A stretch of 64,000 bases of DNA from Thermoplasmatota archaeon (GCA_041601615.1 JBFIHX010000004.1:96001-160000); one strand, 5' to 3'; shown: positions 14,416 through 61,039, counted from the stretch's first letter. The notes: generated from the sequence alone by a model not told the origin. Numbers and translations: made by a program.

Positions 14416-14677
14416 GGCTACGCCCTCGGCAAACCTAGGGTTTTGGCAATCACCACCGTCCCGTGCAAGCACGGGCCGAAGGATTCCTCGGGCTTCGCCC
14501 TAGGCATCGCGAAAACGACTCCCCCTCGCTACGCTCGGGGCAACCCTAGCGTTTTCGCGATCCCCTTCGTCGCCGGACAAGCCGGCACCGAAGGTCCGCT
14601 CGCTGCGCTCGCTGATTACCAAAACCCGTTTCCCTCGGGCTACGCCCTCGGCAAACCTAGGGTTTTGGCAATCACCA
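14416..14677. repeat. 111-bp-period hairpin array containing three copies of the acyl-CoA dehydrogenase 3' end
   Basis: Perfect 40-bp direct repeat 14416-14455 = 14638-14677, plus a synonymously recoded middle copy at 14529-14561. Nested inverted repeats and GCGNAGC mini-hairpins. Confidence 0.9.
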
Positions 14678-15797
14678 TCCTCTGCACTTCCGACGAACCC
14701 TCGCCGATCTCACAGAGCTTGACATCGCGGAACATGCGCTCCACTGGGTAGTCCTTGGTGTAGCCGTTGCCGCCGTGGATCTGAATCGCCTCGGTGGTGG
14801 CCTTCATGCCGACTTCGGAAGCGTAGAGCTTGCCCATGCTAGCTTCTTGCGTGAACGGCTTGCCTTGGTCCTTGAGGACGGCGGCGCGTTGCAGCAGGAG
14901 GCGGGCCGCGTCAATCTGCGTGGCCATGTCGGCGAGTTTGAAGCTGATGGCTTGGTTGGCGGCGATGGGCTTGCCAAATTGCTTGCGCTCCTGGGCGTAG
15001 GCAAGGCTTGCGTCCAGCGCTCCCTGCGCGAGGCCAAGCGCGAGGCTGCCGATGGCGATGCGGCCAGCGTCGAGGGTCTTCATGGTGCCGACGAAGCCCT
15101 GTCCAATGCCGGCGTCGCCGCCAATGACGCGGTCGTCTGCCAGCCACAGGTCTTCAAAGTAGAGTTGGCTCGTGATGCTGCCGCGCATGCCAAGTTTGTC
15201 TTCCTTGTTGCCCATGTTGAGGCCTTTCTCGCCCTTCTCGCCAATGAACGCCGTGATGCCGTGCGCGCCCTTGGAGGGGTCCGTCTTGGCCATGATGGTG
15301 AAAGTGTCCGCGATGTGGCCGTTGGTGATGAATTGCTTCTGGCCATTGATGAGCCAGCCGTCGCCCTCGCGCACCGCCTTGGTTTCGAGGCCCGCCGCGT
15401 CGCTGCCCGCGCTCGGCTCTGTCAGGCACCAGGCACCGATTTTCTTGCCCTGCGCCATGTCCGGGATGTATTTTTGGACCTGCTCGGGCGTGCCTTGGCC
15501 GTAAATGTGGCTGATGCCGAGGCCGTTGTGGGCGGCGAGGCTCAAACTGAGGCTGCCACTGACGCGAGCAATCTCCTCGATGGCAATATTGTAGCTCACG
15601 GTATCGAGGCCGCTGCCGCCGTGCTCGGGCGCGACCGTCATGCCCATGAGGCCCATGGCGGACATCTCGGGGACCATTTCGGCGGGCCACCAATCCTCGG
15701 CATCCATCTTGGCTGCGATGGGGCCAACGCGGCTCTCGGCGAACTCACGCATGGTCTGGCGGATGAGCTCTTGCTCCGGCGTCGGTTGGAAGTCCAT
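14640..15797 (-). CDS. Acyl-CoA dehydrogenase
   Basis: [46 protein letters not shown]. Confidence 0.95.
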
Positions 15798-46562: not shown

Positions 46563-46633
46563 GCGAGGATAGTGTAGTGGTATCACGGTGCCTTGCCAAG
46601 GCACCAACTCGGGTTCAAATCCCGGTCCCCGCA
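46563..46633 (+). tRNA. tRNA-Gly(GCC), copy 1
   Basis: Cloverleaf with anticodon arm GTGCC-TTGCCAA-GGCAC and T-loop TTCAAAT. No encoded CCA. Confidence 0.95.
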
Positions 46634-46667
46634 TTTTCATTTTCAACCGCAATTTCGGAGTCACCAC

Positions 46668-46738
46668 GCGAGGATAGTGTAGTGGTATCACGGTGCCTTG
46701 CCAAGGCACCAACTCGGGTTCAAATCCCGGTCCCCGCA
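46668..46738 (+). tRNA. tRNA-Gly(GCC), copy 2
   Basis: Identical to copy 1 at a 105-bp period. Confidence 0.95.
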
Positions 46739-56045: not shown

Positions 56046-58727
56046 GTGCCTGCCCCGGGGCCCTACACGACCTCCTCCGTTGAGGTCCTGGACCGTCTCC
56101 AAGTCGATGTTGAAACCGGACTGACTCCGGCAGAGGTCCAGGCACGGACTCGCCAATGGGGGCCCAATGAACTTCCCGAGAACGATTCCAGGAGCGCTTG
56201 GAAGATCCTCGCCCGGCAATTTTCCAACGTCTTGATCTGGATCCTCGCCGGCGCCATCGTCCTCTCCCTCGTACTCCAGGAAACCCTCGAAGCCATCGCC
56301 ATCACGGTCATCGCCGTCTTCACCATCATCCTCGGTTTCCTGCAAGAATACCGAGCCGAACGCGCAATGGACGCCCTGCGGCGCCTCTCAGCCCCTCATG
56401 CACGGGTCCTTCGAAACGGCGCCGCGACCACACTCCCCTCCAGCCAGATCGTCCCCGGCGACATCCTGCTCTTGGCCCAAGGCGATATCGTGGCCGCCGA
56501 CGCCCGGCTCCTCGACGCCGCAGACCTCGAAACAGCCGAAGCCTCCCTCACCGGCGAATCCACGCCCGTAACCAAGGACGCCGACCAAGAACTCACCGCA
56601 GACACCGCCCTGGCCGACCGCACAAACATGGTCTACGCCACCACCACCATCACCCGGGGCCGCGCCACCGCCGTGGCCACCGCCACGGGAACCCACACCG
56701 AAGTTGGCCACATCGGTCGTCTGCTTGCCACGGTCGAGACTCAAAAAACGCCCCTGGAAAGACAACTCGACCAATTTGGACGCTGGCTTGTCTGGGTCGC
56801 CGCCGCCATTGTCCTTGTAGTGGTCCTCCTCGGAATACTGCGCGGAATCTCCTGGATCGAGATGCTGTTCATCGGCGTCGCGCTCGCAGTCGCCGCCGTA
56901 CCCGAAGCACTGCCCGCCGTCGTCACCATCAGCCTCGCCGTGGGCGCCCAGCGCATGGCCCGCCGCAATGCATTGGTTCGACGCCTGTCGACCGTTGAGA
57001 CCCTCGGCTCCACCACCATCATCTGCACCGACAAGACCGGCACCCTCACCACTGGCATCATGACCGCCGCCGCCGTCGCCCTCCCCGGCCACGACATCAC
57101 CATCAAGGGCAGCAGCCTCGACCCCACAATTCGCCTAGCAGTCACCGTGCCCCCCGCCCAGCAAGACGCCTTCGAAACAATGCTCACGGCATGCGCCCAA
57201 TGCAGCGACGCAGTGCTCGAACACTCCGCCACAGACGGCACCTGGACGGTCACAGGCGACCCCACAGAAGGCGCCCTCGTCGCTTTGGCCGCCCGGGCAG
57301 GAAAGAACAAAGCCGACCTCGAAGACACAAATCCACGAATCGACGAAGAGCCGTTCGACGCCAGCACCCGCCGTATGATCACCCTGCACCAAGATGGCCA
57401 AGCTTACGCCAAAGGCGCCCCCGGCGCCCTTCTAGAAATCTGCGACCGGTACTGGAACGCCGGTACGGTGGTCCCGCTTGTTCCCGAGGTCCAAGAGCAG
57501 ATTCAGGCGTCCGTCCAAGTCCTCGCCGCCCACGGTATGCGCGTCATGGCGTTGGCATGGAAACCCGATGCAGCAGCCCAAGACATGGGACATTCCTTGG
57601 TATACCTTGGATTGGTCGGAATCCGCGACCCGCCGCGACCCGAGGCCGCCGCAGCCATCGCCACGTGTCATGATGCTGGTGTCCGGGTCCTGATGATCAC
57701 CGGAGACCATCACGAGACCGCCCGCGCCATCGCCCATGAACTCGGATTCCTCGAAAATGGATCAGACCATGTCATTGATGGCCGCGCCCTCGACGCCCTC
57801 GACCAGAAGAGATTCCAAGACACCATCACCAAGACCAACGTGTACGCCCGCGTCAGCCCCGAACTCAAACTGCGCATCGTCCAAGCGCTCCAAGCCCAAC
57901 AAGAAGTGGTCGCCATGACCGGAGACGGCGTCAATGACGCCCCCGCCCTGCGCCAAGCTGACATCGGCATCGCCATGGGCATCACCGGCACCGATGTGGC
58001 CAAACAAGCAGCCGATATGACACTGGCCGACGACGACTTTGCCACCATCGTCGCTGCAATCGAAGAAGGACGCGGCATCTTTGCCAACGTCAGAAAATAT
58101 CTGGTCTACCTCCTGTCCACCAATTTTGGCGAACTGATGCTCATCGCCGCAGCCTTGGCCCTAGGACTCCCCTTGCCCCTGTCGGCCGTGATGATCTTGT
58201 ACGTCAACATCGCCTCCGACGGCCTCCCCGCCCTCGCCCTCGCCGTGGACCCCCAACACCCCGGCGCCATGCAAAAAGCCCCCCGAGCCCCAGGAAGCGG
58301 CATCCTTGATCGCCCCATCATGCTCTTGATGCTCCTAGGTGGCCTCTGGTCGGCCGTTTCCAACATCGCCGTGTTCACCTGGGCGCTACAAACCGGAAGG
58401 CCCCTCGAATTGGCCATGACGACCACGTTCGCCTCCCTTGTCCTGGTCCAGTTCGTCAAGGCATACATTTTCCGCACGGAACTTCGCCCCATCTGGGACG
58501 CCCCCCTGGCCAACAAATGGCTCAATCGCGCCGTCGCCTGGGAAATCCTCCTGATCATCCTGTTGCTGTATCTCCCCGGACTTCAAGCCCTGTTTGGCAC
58601 CCGGCCACTGGGCGCTATCGAGTGGCTGGCGGTCGCATTGGCAGCTGTATCGATCGTGCCGGTGCTGGAGACCTTCAAGTGGTACATCCGCACACGATCT
58701 GTGAACCATCGCCCTGCCCGGGCATGA
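56046..58727 (+). CDS. P-type cation-transporting ATPase (P2A, Ca2+-type)
   Basis: TGES, VAAVPEAL, DKTGTLT, KGAP, TGD, GDGVNDAPAL. Confidence 0.95.
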   Translation: MPAPGPYTTSSVEVLDRLQVDVETGLTPAEVQARTRQWGPNELPENDSRSAWKILARQFSNVLIWILAGAIVLSLVLQETLEAIAITVIAVFTIILGFLQEYRAERAMDALRRLSAPHARVLRNGAATTLPSSQIVPGDILLLAQGDIVAADARLLDAADLETAEASLTGESTPVTKDADQELTADTALADRTNMVYATTTITRGRATAVATATGTHTEVGHIGRLLATVETQKTPLERQLDQFGRWLVWVAAAIVLVVVLLGILRGISWIEMLFIGVALAVAAVPEALPAVVTISLAVGAQRMARRNALVRRLSTVETLGSTTIICTDKTGTLTTGIMTAAAVALPGHDITIKGSSLDPTIRLAVTVPPAQQDAFETMLTACAQCSDAVLEHSATDGTWTVTGDPTEGALVALAARAGKNKADLEDTNPRIDEEPFDASTRRMITLHQDGQAYAKGAPGALLEICDRYWNAGTVVPLVPEVQEQIQASVQVLAAHGMRVMALAWKPDAAAQDMGHSLVYLGLVGIRDPPRPEAAAAIATCHDAGVRVLMITGDHHETARAIAHELGFLENGSDHVIDGRALDALDQKRFQDTITKTNVYARVSPELKLRIVQALQAQQEVVAMTGDGVNDAPALRQADIGIAMGITGTDVAKQAADMTLADDDFATIVAAIEEGRGIFANVRKYLVYLLSTNFGELMLIAAALALGLPLPLSAVMILYVNIASDGLPALALAVDPQHPGAMQKAPRAPGSGILDRPIMLLMLLGGLWSAVSNIAVFTWALQTGRPLELAMTTTFASLVLVQFVKAYIFRTELRPIWDAPLANKWLNRAVAWEILLIILLLYLPGLQALFGTRPLGAIEWLAVALAAVSIVPVLETFKWYIRTRSVNHRPARA

Positions 58728-58892
58728 CACAAAACCGCTCGGGCCAGACCATCGGTGCCGCACGACGACACGCAAGGCGCAATCGAACGATGACGCGGAA
58801 GGACCAAAGAGCCAGACCGGAAGCGGCCGGGCAGAAAAAGAAGGAATGAGATGACCTGAGAAGGCTACACGCCCAAGGCAGCAGCGCCCCGG

Positions 58893-59030
58893 GCTACGCT
58901 TGCTTCACTCCCACTTGACCGTGGCAGGCGTCACACTGGCCGTGAACGGCCAGCAATCACCCACCAACCGCGCAATGGTCGCTCGGCGTTGCCTTACTCC
59001 CATTCCACGGTTGCTGGTGGCTTATCGCTG
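58893..59030. repeat. Recoded duplicate of the guaAB 3' end, with an inverted copy and hairpin
   Basis: 58905-58928 encodes PATVKWE* against the gene end PATVEWE* (58994-59017). Arm 58951-58978 is imperfectly complementary to 59000-59030. Hairpin at 58936-58953. Confidence 0.75.
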
Positions 59031-59962
59031 ATGTCGTACACAACGCGGTTGACCTTGTCTTTGAGGTCCGCGTGGTTCGTGATGCCGCGACTGATTCGAG
59101 CCAGCACCTTCCACGGAATTTCCGTGGCCTGCGCCGTCATGGCGTCGAAGCTCTGCACCGCACGCACCGCCACGGTCTCGCCATAGGCACGAAGGTCTCC
59201 CTGGACACCGACGCTGGGGGTGTTGGTGAGCACCGCGAAGTATTGCCACGGCAGCTCCTCCATCTCGCCCTTTTCGACGGCTTTCACGAGCTCCGTCTCG
59301 ACGATGTGGCACGCCTCGCGAGCGATGGCTGTGCGCTCGGGCGTCAGGTCACCAATGACACGCACGGCGAGTCCGGGACCCGGAAACGGCTGGCGCTCGG
59401 CCACTTCGATGCCTTGGAAGCGAGCCACGGCGCGCACCTCATCCTTGTACAGGTCGTACAGGGGTTCGCACAGCTCCATCTCCATGTCGTCGGGCAGGCC
59501 GCCCACGTTGTGGTGCGACTTGATGGTGTCACGGTTGCCGCCGCCACTCTCGATCCAGTCGGGCGCAATCGTGCCCTGAACCAGGTACTTGGCGCCGGTC
59601 TTCTTGGCCTCGCGCTCAAAGATGCGAATGAACTTCTCGCCGATGATCTTGCGCTTCTGCTCCGGCTCGCTCACACCCGCAAGCGCCTCGAAGTATTCAT
59701 CGGCAGCGTAGACGACGGTGAGATTGAGGCCCATGCGCTTGTACATCGCCTCCGTCTCCTCCGACTCGCCCTTGCGCATGAAACCGGTGTCCACGTAGAT
59801 GGCGTGCAACTTGTCGCCGATCGCCTCCTTGACAATCTCAGCCGCGACGCTCGAATCGACGCCACCGCTTACCGCGATGACAGCGTGGTTGTCGCCGATC
59901 TGATCCTTGGCCTTTTGGACGGCGTCCCTGACAAATTCGTCAGCGTCAAACAGCATCTCCAT
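58994..59962 (-). CDS. guaAB: GMP synthase subunit B (ATP pyrophosphatase)
   Basis: SGGVDSS, LVQGTIAPDWIES, IKSHHNVGG, QPFPGPGL, KPPATVEWE. No GATase domain (archaeal split form). Confidence 0.95.
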   Translation of the reverse strand: MEMLFDADEFVRDAVQKAKDQIGDNHAVIAVSGGVDSSVAAEIVKEAIGDKLHAIYVDTGFMRKGESEETEAMYKRMGLNLTVVYAADEYFEALAGVSEPEQKRKIIGEKFIRIFEREAKKTGAKYLVQGTIAPDWIESGGGNRDTIKSHHNVGGLPDDMEMELCEPLYDLYKDEVRAVARFQGIEVAERQPFPGPGLAVRVIGDLTPERTAIAREACHIVETELVKAVEKGEMEELPWQYFAVLTNTPSVGVQGDLRAYGETVAVRAVQSFDAMTAQATEIPWKVLARISRGITNHADLKDKVNRVVYDISDKPPATVEWE

Positions 59963-60406: not shown

Positions 60407-61039
60407 CTACGTCGGGCGTGCTAAGGGCGCTCCAGTATCGGGGTCTTCTCCCATGGACACACGCATCCCCGCAGCACGCAACGAATCCCGAAGGAACCGC
60501 TCAGCATCCACCGCCGCTTGTCTAGAAGCGACCTCCATCGAATGAAGCGGCTCAGAGACATGGTTGCTGGATGTGATGCGAGCACCCCGCCCGGCCGCGT
60601 GTTCCCGGAGGCGCTTTTTCAAATCCCGGGTCTGGCCCACGTAGAGCGCCCCGTCATTGAGTCGAAGCAGATACACCTTCCAAGATCCAAAATGGTGCTC
60701 GTCGCCTTTTTTCCATCCCGGATGGACCGGTTCCGGATGCCGCGCCAGTCCCGGAGCAGCAGGCCGGTCCGCTGTGCAGAATCGCAAAAATTGGCCCGGA
60801 GTCAGCAGAAAGCTGCACGTTGCACCAAGGCACCAGCGCGTCTCTTCTCCAGTCGGCGCCCTCGGCGGCCACGATTCGATGTGCGGGTCCTGGTGAACGA
60901 TGGTGCTCCAACAATCGATGCAATAGTGGTACTCGGTGCGGCGCGTGTCCGCCTCACAGGCAATCGCCTCATGGTCTTGCCAAAAGTAGGCCTGACACTT
61001 TTTGGAGGGGTTGGAGGAGGAAGAATTCCGACGAGCCAC
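60407..61039 (-). CDS. GIY-YIG nuclease family protein with Cys-rich N-terminal extension
   Basis: KVYLLRLNDGALYVGQTRDLKKRLREH...G...AVDAE motif set. Confidence 0.85.
   Translation of the reverse strand: MARRNSSSSNPSKKCQAYFWQDHEAIACEADTRRTEYHYCIDCWSTIVHQDPHIESWPPRAPTGEETRWCLGATCSFLLTPGQFLRFCTADRPAAPGLARHPEPVHPGWKKGDEHHFGSWKVYLLRLNDGALYVGQTRDLKKRLREHAAGRGARITSSNHVSEPLHSMEVASRQAAVDAERFLRDSLRAAGMRVSMGEDPDTGAPLARPT

Follow-up and report, generated by a model that had tools for sequence, protein, structure and literature searches.

A second gene end behind guaAB and its recurrence at other conserved genes point to a small hairpin-forming mobile element in a Thermoplasmatota archaeon

The 3' end of guaAB, the gene for subunit B of a split GMP synthase, is present twice in a 64,000-nucleotide stretch of DNA from a Thermoplasmatota archaeon (GCA_041601615.1, JBFIHX010000004.1:96001-160000). 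This stretch, called the window below, comprises positions 96001-160000 of contig C4 in the metagenome-assembled genome (MAG) G000, which has 2.79 Mb, 62% GC and 30 contigs and is 93% complete. The functional end of guaAB is followed by an inverted copy of itself, by a GC-rich hairpin and by a second, displaced end with its own stop codon. The recurrence of such structures at about two dozen genes, in this genome and in its relatives, points to an undescribed small mobile element. The explanation that we favour, with a probability of roughly 0.55, is a family of small non-coding hairpin elements that displace the 3' ends of conserved housekeeping genes, that spread or are exchanged between lineages, and that are served by an enzyme acting in trans.

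The functional end of guaAB reads CCA CCA GCA ACC GTG GAA TGG GAG TAA (PPATVEWE and stop), and the displaced copy follows at a distance of 89 nt, counted from start to start (Table 1). A repeat search reports the two as a 29-nt direct repeat of 72% identity. They agree without interruption over at most 7 nt (ACTCCCA on the plus strand), a length compatible with the 6-8 bp overlap region of an attachment (att) site and also expected from the shared codons for WE. The 65 nt between the first stop and copy 2 contain no open reading frame (ORF). Inverted arms pair 58961-58978 with 59000-59017 (83% complementary) and 58951-58966 with 59015-59030 (81%), and the inverted arm fits copy 1, not copy 2. 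In the predicted fold the functional stop lies in the apical part of a long hairpin, and the 146-nt stretch folds better than its shuffles (z = -3.2 as RNA and -3.5 as DNA). The apical module belongs to the GCGNAGC / GAGCGnAGCGAG motif class found after other affected stops, and the second hairpin, separated from copy 2 by a 7-nt spacer, is kept in the relative G002; G017, G012 and G020 have it too, with CTTGC as the loop. The last eight codons have a GC content at third positions (GC3) of 0.50, against 0.82 in the gene body, and carry the only two CCA codons among 13 for proline and the only GCA among 35 for alanine. An earlier reading of the window, made from the sequence alone (the sequence-only reading), had described the second end, the inverted copy and the GC hairpin, and their coordinates and sequence are confirmed here. 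It had also pointed to a 10-mer, CGGGCTACGC, shared with a first array at an acyl-CoA dehydrogenase gene; the word does occur exactly twice in the window (14636 and 58890) with 0.10 occurrences expected for a given 10-mer, a coincidence that was chosen post hoc and is weak alone. The convergent P-type ATPase gene, whose end is at 58727, shares the CT-rich tract downstream of the displaced stop. G000 has no more than two PATVEWE-type ends.

Table 1. Features of the guaAB gene end and of the first array (window coordinates)
Feature	Position	Strand	Basis or remark
guaAB coding sequence (GMP synthase subunit B, split GMP synthase)	~58994..59962	minus	Pfam GMP_synt_C 9.6e-33, translation
Putative guaAB start, ATG of MEMLF...	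59960-59962	minus	placed, predicted
Copy 1, functional last 8 codons PPATVEWE, also 5' arm of hairpin 1	58997..59020	minus	
Functional stop TAA, apical part of hairpin 1	58994..58996	minus	sequence, fold
Apical module, mini-hairpin GGC-AAC-GCC, then GAGCGA	58979..58993	minus	
A', imperfect inverted copy of copy 1, 3' arm of hairpin 1	58961..58978	minus	83% complementary, fold
Second hairpin CTGGCCG-TTCA-CGGCCAG, perfect 7-bp	58936..58953	minus	
Copy 2, displaced end PATVKWE, CCT GCC ACG GTC AAG TGG GAG	58908..58928	minus	
Displaced stop TGA	58905..58907	minus	
GCGTAGC motif directly after displaced stop	58893..58899	minus	part of 10-mer common with acyl-CoA dehydrogenase array
CT-rich tract CCTTCTCAGGTCATCTCATTCCTTCTTTTTCTGCC, taken as native terminator-type 3' flank	58830..58864	minus	
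First array, at acyl-CoA dehydrogenase gene (14640-15797)	14418..14675	minus	

The second end of guaAB is not a chance match. When the last eight residues and the stop of all 10,396 ORFs of at least 100 aa in G000 were compared with their own 400 nt downstream (threshold 6/8), 39 translated matches were found, 23 of them 8/8. The chance rate, which the sequence-only reading had proposed to estimate from shuffled intergenic sequence, proved to be 0-1 per permutation of the downstream regions (1, 0, 0, 0 and 1 matches in five permutations, or about 2 in 51,980 trials). Eleven rows were dropped from the 39, leaving 28 pairs at 27 gene ends. The rows set aside were a shared tail of ribosomal P0/P1 (C3 121722), a duplication of a tRNA 3' half (C5 116347), opposite-strand or low-complexity ORFs (C11 48709, C2 769, C23 5001, C30 1513, C4 151087, C7 135499, C3 212731), a contig-end repeat (C9 94079) and the second of two copies at C5 108335. 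A scan at the DNA level gave 100 direct-repeat pairs (exact seed of at least 20 nt, spacing 40-400), which we read as falling within repeat-domain genes in about 45 cases and at gene 3' ends in about 25-30; in six pairs the exact identity breaks off between -2 and +4 nt relative to where the stop codon ends. As a separate observation, the tRNA 3' half on C5 is part of a 122-nt unit present 2.2 times (G000:C5:116251-116518), which resembles a classical integrase att duplication.

Nor is the structure an assembly artefact. Independently assembled Logan contigs carry it with 0 differences, X1 over the whole stretch, X3 over 58500-59072 and X4 over 58500-59074; the runs all belong to a single study, whose X1 and X2 are possibly the source sample. 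What could be said for chance or an artefact is that the guaAB match is short (7 of 8 codons counting the stop), that 100%-identical tandem repeats at the contig ends of MAGs are possible assembler loops, and that in a public Bifidobacterium MAG (L085, 2157-2256) identical guaA ends flank a run of N, a scaffolding or masking artefact that we discounted. Against the rate in permuted trials, the agreement of contigs from three runs and a homologous structure in G002, this explanation can practically be dismissed. The contig ends of G000 themselves hold tandem repeats of 63-128 nt with 95-100% identity (C9 1-209 and 94044-94181, C10 4-230, C12 72204-72362, C14 63346-63603, C18 31222-31454); the C9 end is the reverse complement of the C12 end, so those contigs probably adjoin, and part of the repeats may be loops made by the assembler where an element of this kind lies.

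Inverted copies are similarly in excess: 10 of 2,074 gene ends have an inverted gene-end copy within 70 nt of the stop at a score of at least 24, against 1 and 0 in two controls. The complete direct-inverted-direct order is found at six loci, namely guaAB, the acyl-CoA dehydrogenase of the first array, aEF-2, S7, a DUF7121 gene and a contig-end locus. Inserts sit at or within about 16 nt of the stop, between direct copies of the gene end and often with an inverted copy beside the first. About 1-2% of gene ends carry such structures, and nearly all of these belong to conserved housekeeping genes: 18 of 20 ends tested have Pfam families, among them aEF-2, GAPDH, arginase, NifU, S7, class II aminoacyl-tRNA synthetase, RtcB, H+-PPase, ThyX, ETF-alpha, aRF1, PolB, the PolD large subunit (PolD-DP2) and phosphoglucomutase. 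Beyond these 20 stand guaAB, the acyl-CoA dehydrogenase in the window (Pfam) and three ends with acyl-CoA-dehydrogenase-like tails. The displaced copies typically precede CT-rich tracts resembling those after unaffected genes, and the new stop differs from the native one in 14 of the 28 pairs. Two cases in the window had led the sequence-only reading to propose a general mechanism that tailors a hairpin to each target; the approximately 27 ends, 10 inverted copies and six full architectures support this generality, while the mechanism itself is not proven.

Many of the inserts at unrelated genes share modules. The inserts are 60-190 nt long, contain no ORF in the examples examined, are always oriented as the upstream gene, and have conserved loops and variable stems; the accompanying duplications measure about 18 to about 100 nt. 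The largest group, family A, has the form GGGTGGC-CGAGCGnAGCGAG-GCCGCCC, then AAAATGATCGACC-TTTTnGAA-GGTCG, and gave 15 BLAST rows at 13 loci, each from a few to about 60 nt after a co-oriented stop; at 6 of the 13 loci a duplicated piece of the upstream flank, 45-100 nt long, comes next. Its ends (GGGTGGCC... and ...GAAGGTCG) are, by eye, not inverted repeats. Families B and C are also multi-copy, and several singletons exist besides. A third type consists of the stop, a G(G)GC-GNA-GC(C)C mini-hairpin, GAA(C), the inverted gene-end copy, a hairpin AGCGAGGCC-nnnn-GGCCGAGCGGACC that contains tandem G.A pairs, and a GC hairpin. The GCCGAGCGGACC module, which is also frequent in G012 and G020, occurs 11 times in G000 against 0 for its reversed control, and 7 of 31 sites of CGAGCGGAC lie 33-59 nt after a stop with an inverted gene-end copy in between. 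For GAGCGNAGCGAG the counts in G000 are 32 against 11, a weak difference since the reversed control is nearly the same word, and perfect hairpins with a GCTTGC loop number four, three of them near co-oriented gene ends, too few for a test. Two further arrays were seen. Downstream of an arginase-family gene in G005 (L137, G005:C28), about six hairpins with differing, compensating stems share the conserved loop ACGACCAAGA and linker GGTGAGCAAnTGAnGCGGACC. At G000:C2:114747-115092, a 109-nt unit repeated 3.2 times joins a family-A-like element to the 5' end and upstream region of an opposite-strand tRNA gene, so that duplication is not confined to the ends of protein genes.

The polarity of the events is visible where filled and empty sites can be compared. 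The aEF-2 gene is empty in G002 (...TAC GCC GAA TAG GCGTAATC...CTTTTTTCCTCCC) and filled in G000 (...TAC GCT GAG TGA, a 104-nt unit, then ...TAC GCT GGG TAG GCGAATTC...CTTTTTCCTCCC), which makes copy 2, the native TAG and the native flank ancestral, the TGA having come with the insert. Different inserts occupy this gene end in G000, G001 and G005; in the young insert all three copies have local codon choices, and in G002 a 7-bp hairpin (ATTACGC...GCGTAAT) whose loop holds the stop is present even at the empty site. The DUF7121 gene is empty in G001, has an insert of the inverted-arm (A') type in G000 and one of family A in G002; in G000 copy 2 matches the empty allele at AAG and TAG, and copy 1 is recoded (AAA, AGT, GGA, TGA). 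At S7, empty in G005 and G021, the genomes G000, G002 and G014 hold three different inserts. The displaced S7 copy of G002 has the coding of the functional end of G000 over 24 nt, and its new functional end differs at six positions, all synonymous, including a change of Ser from TCT to AGC that creates a self-complementary AGCGCT paired across the stop; by eye, the inverted arm fits the new end. The arginase-family gene is empty in G002, G005 and G021. At these four loci the downstream copy, which retains the native stop, native-type codons and the homologous CT-rich 3' flank, is the ancestral end, and the insert consists of copy 1, the new stop and the hairpin. The proposal, already made for guaAB from the sequence alone, that the downstream copy is ancestral and was displaced by an insert carrying a recoded end, is thus supported by four other loci; at guaAB itself the polarity is not proven, and the evidence for it is indirect, namely the atypical last codons, the fit of the inverted arm to copy 1, the CT-rich tract behind copy 2, and the functional end of G001 and the shorter X4 contig described below.

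The first array lies at the acyl-CoA dehydrogenase gene. It runs from the functional end through an inverted arm, the AGCGAGCGCAGCGAGCGGACC module and a hairpin to a recoded copy (14529-14555), which is followed by its own inverted arm, a hairpin and a final end copy (14418-14444) that is an exact copy of the functional end. Between G000 and G002 the middle copy differs at 9 nt (six differing codons are synonymous, among them Leu TTG/CTT and Arg CGA/AGG, and one is not), while the 77-nt spacer preceding it has only 4 differences and the proteins are 97% identical. Drift cannot yield a recoded copy beside a nearly unchanged spacer; judged from these sequences, the middle copy must derive from a long-diverged functional end.

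At guaAB, one to three further PATVEWE-type ends with stops are present in 10 of 21 loci from the same family, against 0 of 8 from other families of the order or class. In a genome contig set, extra copies were found in 6 of 12 loci at 80% identity or more (largely the same genomes) and in 2 of 61 more distant loci; of these two, one is the discounted record with the run of N, and the other, a Thermoplasmatales MAG (L068, 60% protein identity), has the full architecture with a GAGACC-CGAGCGAAGCGAG-GGTCTC hairpin. None of 80 metagenome loci with an exact PATVEWE-stop end, 69 of them with at least 300 nt downstream, has a second copy. The homologous insert in G002 is 92.5% identical over the gene end, the insert and most of copy 2. 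The homology stops inside copy 2 (58905-58930 against L002), as it does after copy 2 at C2 181980, so that displaced ends coincide with breaks of synteny, and the genes downstream of the guaAB copy 2 differ between G000 and G002. In G001 a beta-coded functional end is followed by a new unit, an alpha-coded copy, a second unit and a beta copy; the 5' half of the second unit is homologous to the insert of G000, so that G001 has one extra unit on the gene-proximal side. The array codings GTG GAA and GTC GAG alternate, and genomes that lack inserts also use both as native ends. Each inverted arm tends to fit the unit to which it belongs, with a mean score of 16.2 in 13 units that are followed by another copy and of 11.7 at 21 terminal or single ends (Mann-Whitney p=0.0016). 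The expectation that relatives would have alleles ending like the displaced copy was borne out in part: the functional end of G001 matches copy 2 of G000 except for GAG against AAG among the sense codons (and TAA against TGA as stop), and in the X4 contig a related guaAB body is joined directly to a copy-2-like end, 89 nt shorter. Separately, G025, from another family of the same order, has two stray matches to 18 residues of the guaAB C-terminus (C7:36546-36599 and C210:3-56), away from the full-length gene.

The copies have diverged as coding sequences do. Over the 28 pairs, differences between copy 1 and copy 2 at codon positions 1/2/3 number 29/25/106, and when the eight ascertained codons are left out, the other 209 codons give 16/20/62 (binomial p=2e-9 against one third). 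This excess at third positions implies that the downstream copies are either young copies of functional ends or are kept like them.

Taken as a hairpin-forming insertion element placed exactly at the 3' end of the gene, the 89 bases at guaAB would represent a common scheme. Each insertion would bring the last 7-30 codons in a further copy, a new stop in or beside a GNA-type mini-hairpin, an inverted copy of those codons that turns the gene end into the 5' arm of a long hairpin, and one or two more modules (a tandem-G.A hairpin, a GC hairpin), with the original end, its stop and its terminator-like flank staying intact downstream as a fossil. In a first insertion both target copies could be templated on the gene end, for example by fold-back or template switching at the mini-hairpin combined with a staggered break. 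Mini-hairpins of the GCGNAGC type are extraordinarily stable, and this one is a plausible fold-back point. Established inserts would then spread between lineages and be swapped by homologous recombination through the conserved coding flanks, which would explain why functional ends differ from displaced ones almost only synonymously. Arrays would grow by repeated insertion or unequal crossing-over, inserts would be lost by recombination between direct copies, and the mobilising enzyme would act in trans. A further step, which we regard as doubtful, is that the inverted arm of 16-26 nt is a guide pairing with the last codons of a conserved gene. Such pairing would place the insert precisely at the stop codon and decide how much of the target is duplicated, and after insertion the guide would adjoin its target as a hairpin. 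The result would be a nucleic-acid-guided, reprogrammable system for insertion at gene ends, made of miniature enzyme-less homing elements that spread among archaeal lineages through conserved C-terminal coding sequence and are served by a host or helper enzyme.

The search for such an enzyme and for a known class of element gave mostly negative results. The Y1 (HUH) transposase of the REP-associated (RAYT) type, PF01797, has no match in G000 (a positive control matched in 6 of 14 genomes), and neither has reverse transcriptase, PF00078. Tyrosine recombinase, PF00589, has three matches, only on C16, C13 and C8. No recombinase or mobile-element gene is among the 13 ORFs annotated at 40-64 kb of the window, and self-BLAST of the 93%-complete MAG shows no multi-copy insertion sequence (IS) or IS-like repeat of at least 300 nt. 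The stretch 58700-59100 has no credible match in Rfam 15 (best E 6.3) and four other loci have none at E<=1; a viral contig collection gave 0 matches to the family-A consensus, and a scan for bacterial-type terminators and promoters gave 0 sites. Several classes were set aside on these and related grounds. For a diversity-generating retroelement there is no reverse transcriptase, and the differences between copies (A/T, A/C, C/G, G/C, G/A, A/G) are not adenine-specific, which excludes it. A miniature inverted-repeat transposable element (MITE) with terminal inverted repeats and a short fixed target-site duplication does not agree with the ends of family A or with duplications of about 18-100 nt. 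REP/RAYT elements were rejected on the lack of PF01797 in G000, an integrase island or provirus on the 65 nt between stop 1 and copy 2 with neither recombinase nor cargo, and a known RNA family on the lack of a match to the covariance models of Rfam 15. No endonuclease ORF lies inside the insert. A GIY-YIG ORF of 210 aa is located directly upstream of guaAB (60410-61039, minus strand); it is single-copy, is found at the same position in G018, G021 and G014, and does not correlate with arrays. Elsewhere in this part of the window, two identical tRNA-Gly(GCC) genes lie in tandem (46563-46738) with a 34-nt spacer, a 75-nt exact repeat and a spacing of 105.

The anatomy of the inserts, their recurrence, the polarity at four loci, the presence and absence among congeners and the different inserts at one gene end are directly observed. 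Several observations weigh against a mobile element family as their cause. No enzyme was found, there being no Y1 transposase, reverse transcriptase, linked recombinase or IS in a MAG that is 93% complete. No terminal inverted repeats are seen, and the duplications can be anything between about 18 and about 100 nt long. In G000 the insert at guaAB is a singleton, BLAST returning no second copy, and its membership of the family rests on architecture and on homologous inserts in relatives. Among these relatives an orthologous empty guaAB site with the same downstream gene was not found. The empty sites at other genes could be revertants that arose by recombination between copies, and all compared genomes are MAGs. 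Mini-hairpins with a GNA loop show no general excess behind stop codons, where the first 6-nt bin holds 16 and the baseline is about 13. The A-ending codons of the functional end, remarked on by the sequence-only reading, are borne out at guaAB by its GC3; a bias of new ends towards A/T-ending codons is not general (40 against 29, p=0.23). At C2 181980 the copies are near-identical within G000 and within G002 and about 75-80% alike between the genomes, which could reflect gene conversion or recurrent duplication rather than transfer; the left edge of copy 2 in G000 retains G002-like synonymous states. Exchange between lineages and concerted change both seem to be at work.

Two explanations do without mobility, and we consider both unlikely. 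The structures could be replication errors, in which template switching at quasi-palindromes gives a duplication-inversion-duplication that is kept for a useful hairpin over the stop, with effects on the stability of the mRNA 3' end or on termination. The direct-inverted-direct order is the product expected of two template switches, tandem arrays of 2-3 units exist, and at aEF-2 both the local codon choices of the young insert and the stop-bearing hairpin of the empty site fit this origin. Local copying, however, cannot supply modules that are dispersed over unrelated genes (family A at 13 loci, GCCGAGCGGACC 11 against 0), new stops that differ from the native ones in half of the pairs, or recoded ends with matching arms that are not copies of the local ancestral end, as at S7 in G002 and DUF7121 in G000. 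Alternatively, the inserts could be host-beneficial RNA structures of the 3' untranslated region under structural selection, such as a lineage-specific terminator or stability element bound by a protein; the duplicated ends would be by-products, and the synonymous recoding a co-adaptation of the coding arm to its partner. Conserved loops on variable stems, the constant orientation with the upstream gene, folding better than shuffles and the Ser AGC of G002 S7, which makes AGCGCT across the stop, agree with this. It is harder to reconcile with the rarity of the structures (about 1-2% of gene ends), with their presence in some congeners and absence from others at one and the same essential gene, with the absence of an Rfam family, and with the always-present downstream copy and its own stop, which it leaves unexplained. 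A role as RNA structure is compatible with a mobile origin and not exclusive of it.

The other two explanations concern relics of known kinds of element and are both highly improbable. The pair of guaAB ends could be the attL/attR scar of an integrase island or provirus since deleted from the 3' end of guaA, in line with the known strategy of integrating at gene 3' ends with an element-borne replacement end and with the change of gene order directly after copy 2 between G000 and G002. The sequence-only reading had named guaA 3' ends as common integration sites; no integrase or island is present, and the relevance of this point is not supported. The 65 nt without an ORF, an identical run of only 7 nt, the absence of a recombinase among the 13 ORFs nearby and the confinement of PF00589 to C16, C13 and C8 all oppose a scar, as do the same architecture at about 27 genes and the mere two PATVEWE-type ends in G000. 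A free-standing homing-endonuclease insertion that has since lost its endonuclease gene would give the outcome seen in the mobile ORFs of fungal mitochondria, as far as these are described in the available part of PMC3630166, and it would likewise favour conserved genes; moreover, the GIY-YIG ORF adjoins guaAB. The inserts examined have no ORF, about 27 loci would each need to have lost one, and the GIY-YIG gene is single-copy, lies upstream of guaAB and is also present in G014, which has no array.

The inserts proposed here as mobile elements share traits with several known systems. Integrative elements such as tyrosine-recombinase islands and proviruses use the 3' ends of tRNA and protein genes, guaA included, and their attP carries a replacement end. 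The direct duplication of a gene end whose element-borne copy is functional is common to both; here, in contrast, there is no recombinase and no cargo, the shared core is at most 7 nt, and an inverted copy and many unrelated targets are found. Folded single-strand recombination sites, such as integron attC and the attP of CTX phage, are acted on by IntI or XerCD at one fixed target. The resemblance is one of architecture only, in that a stem mimics the double-stranded target, structure is conserved, and the target is duplicated with an inverted target-like arm inside; unlike these sites, the stem here differs from gene to gene and no recombinase is linked. Template-switch (quasi-palindrome) mutation creates or perfects hairpins. 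It is a source of inverted copies beside their template and of clustered changes that match the arms, but not of dispersed modules, new stops or a displaced direct copy. MITE, REP, BIME and SPRITE repeats, so far as the available descriptions go, are likewise small, non-coding, hairpin-forming and multi-copy, lie just after genes, are present or absent in relatives and are presumably mobilised in trans. By the same descriptions the inserts differ from them in that no terminal inverted repeats were seen and no transposase or RAYT was found, in duplications of 18-100 nt rather than 2-10, and in having part of the element templated on, or carrying, the coding end and stop of its target; the available part of a 2024 review of MITEs mentions neither stop codons nor C-terminal duplication (PMC10969869). 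The closest outcome is that of the mobile ORFs in fungal mitochondria (atp6, atp9, cox2 and nad3 in Allomyces and Glomus), where, according to the part of the source available, a foreign C-terminus is inserted and the native one displaced by an insert of about 1 kb that encodes the endonuclease driving its mobility (PMC3630166). By that account both systems keep the gene intact with a diverged, protein-conserving C-terminal piece, prefer conserved targets and show synonymous divergence that suggests a horizontal origin; here, by contrast, inserts are 60-190 nt long, have no ORF, form a hairpin with an inverted copy and the stop in the loop, and affect dozens of archaeal genes. An inserted, diverged C-terminus followed by the displaced native one was found at other loci, and indirectly at guaAB. 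In their size, in the absence of any ORF, in a hairpin made from target sequence with the stop in its loop, and in how many genes are hit, the inserts depart from both the mitochondrial ORFs and the integrative elements, and a full-text search of the literature, supplements aside, returned no description of gene ends displaced by such inserts.

The phenomenon is systematic and conserved across genera. If the favoured explanation is true, these archaea would harbour a class of mobile DNA that standard annotation misses for want of an ORF, of terminal repeats and of an Rfam family. It would also account for broken contigs and unusual tandem repeats in the MAGs of these archaea, and it raises the mechanistic question of how DNA comes to be inserted just at a stop codon and how the target is turned into a stem; with stems that come from the target and loops that are conserved, such a system might be guide-like and programmable. 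For the organisms themselves it would mean that the last codons and stops of aEF-2, S7, aRF1, both replicative polymerases, GAPDH and GMP synthase are rewritten with their proteins unchanged, and that synonymous recoding and fossil gene ends record a history of insertion and of transfer between lineages.

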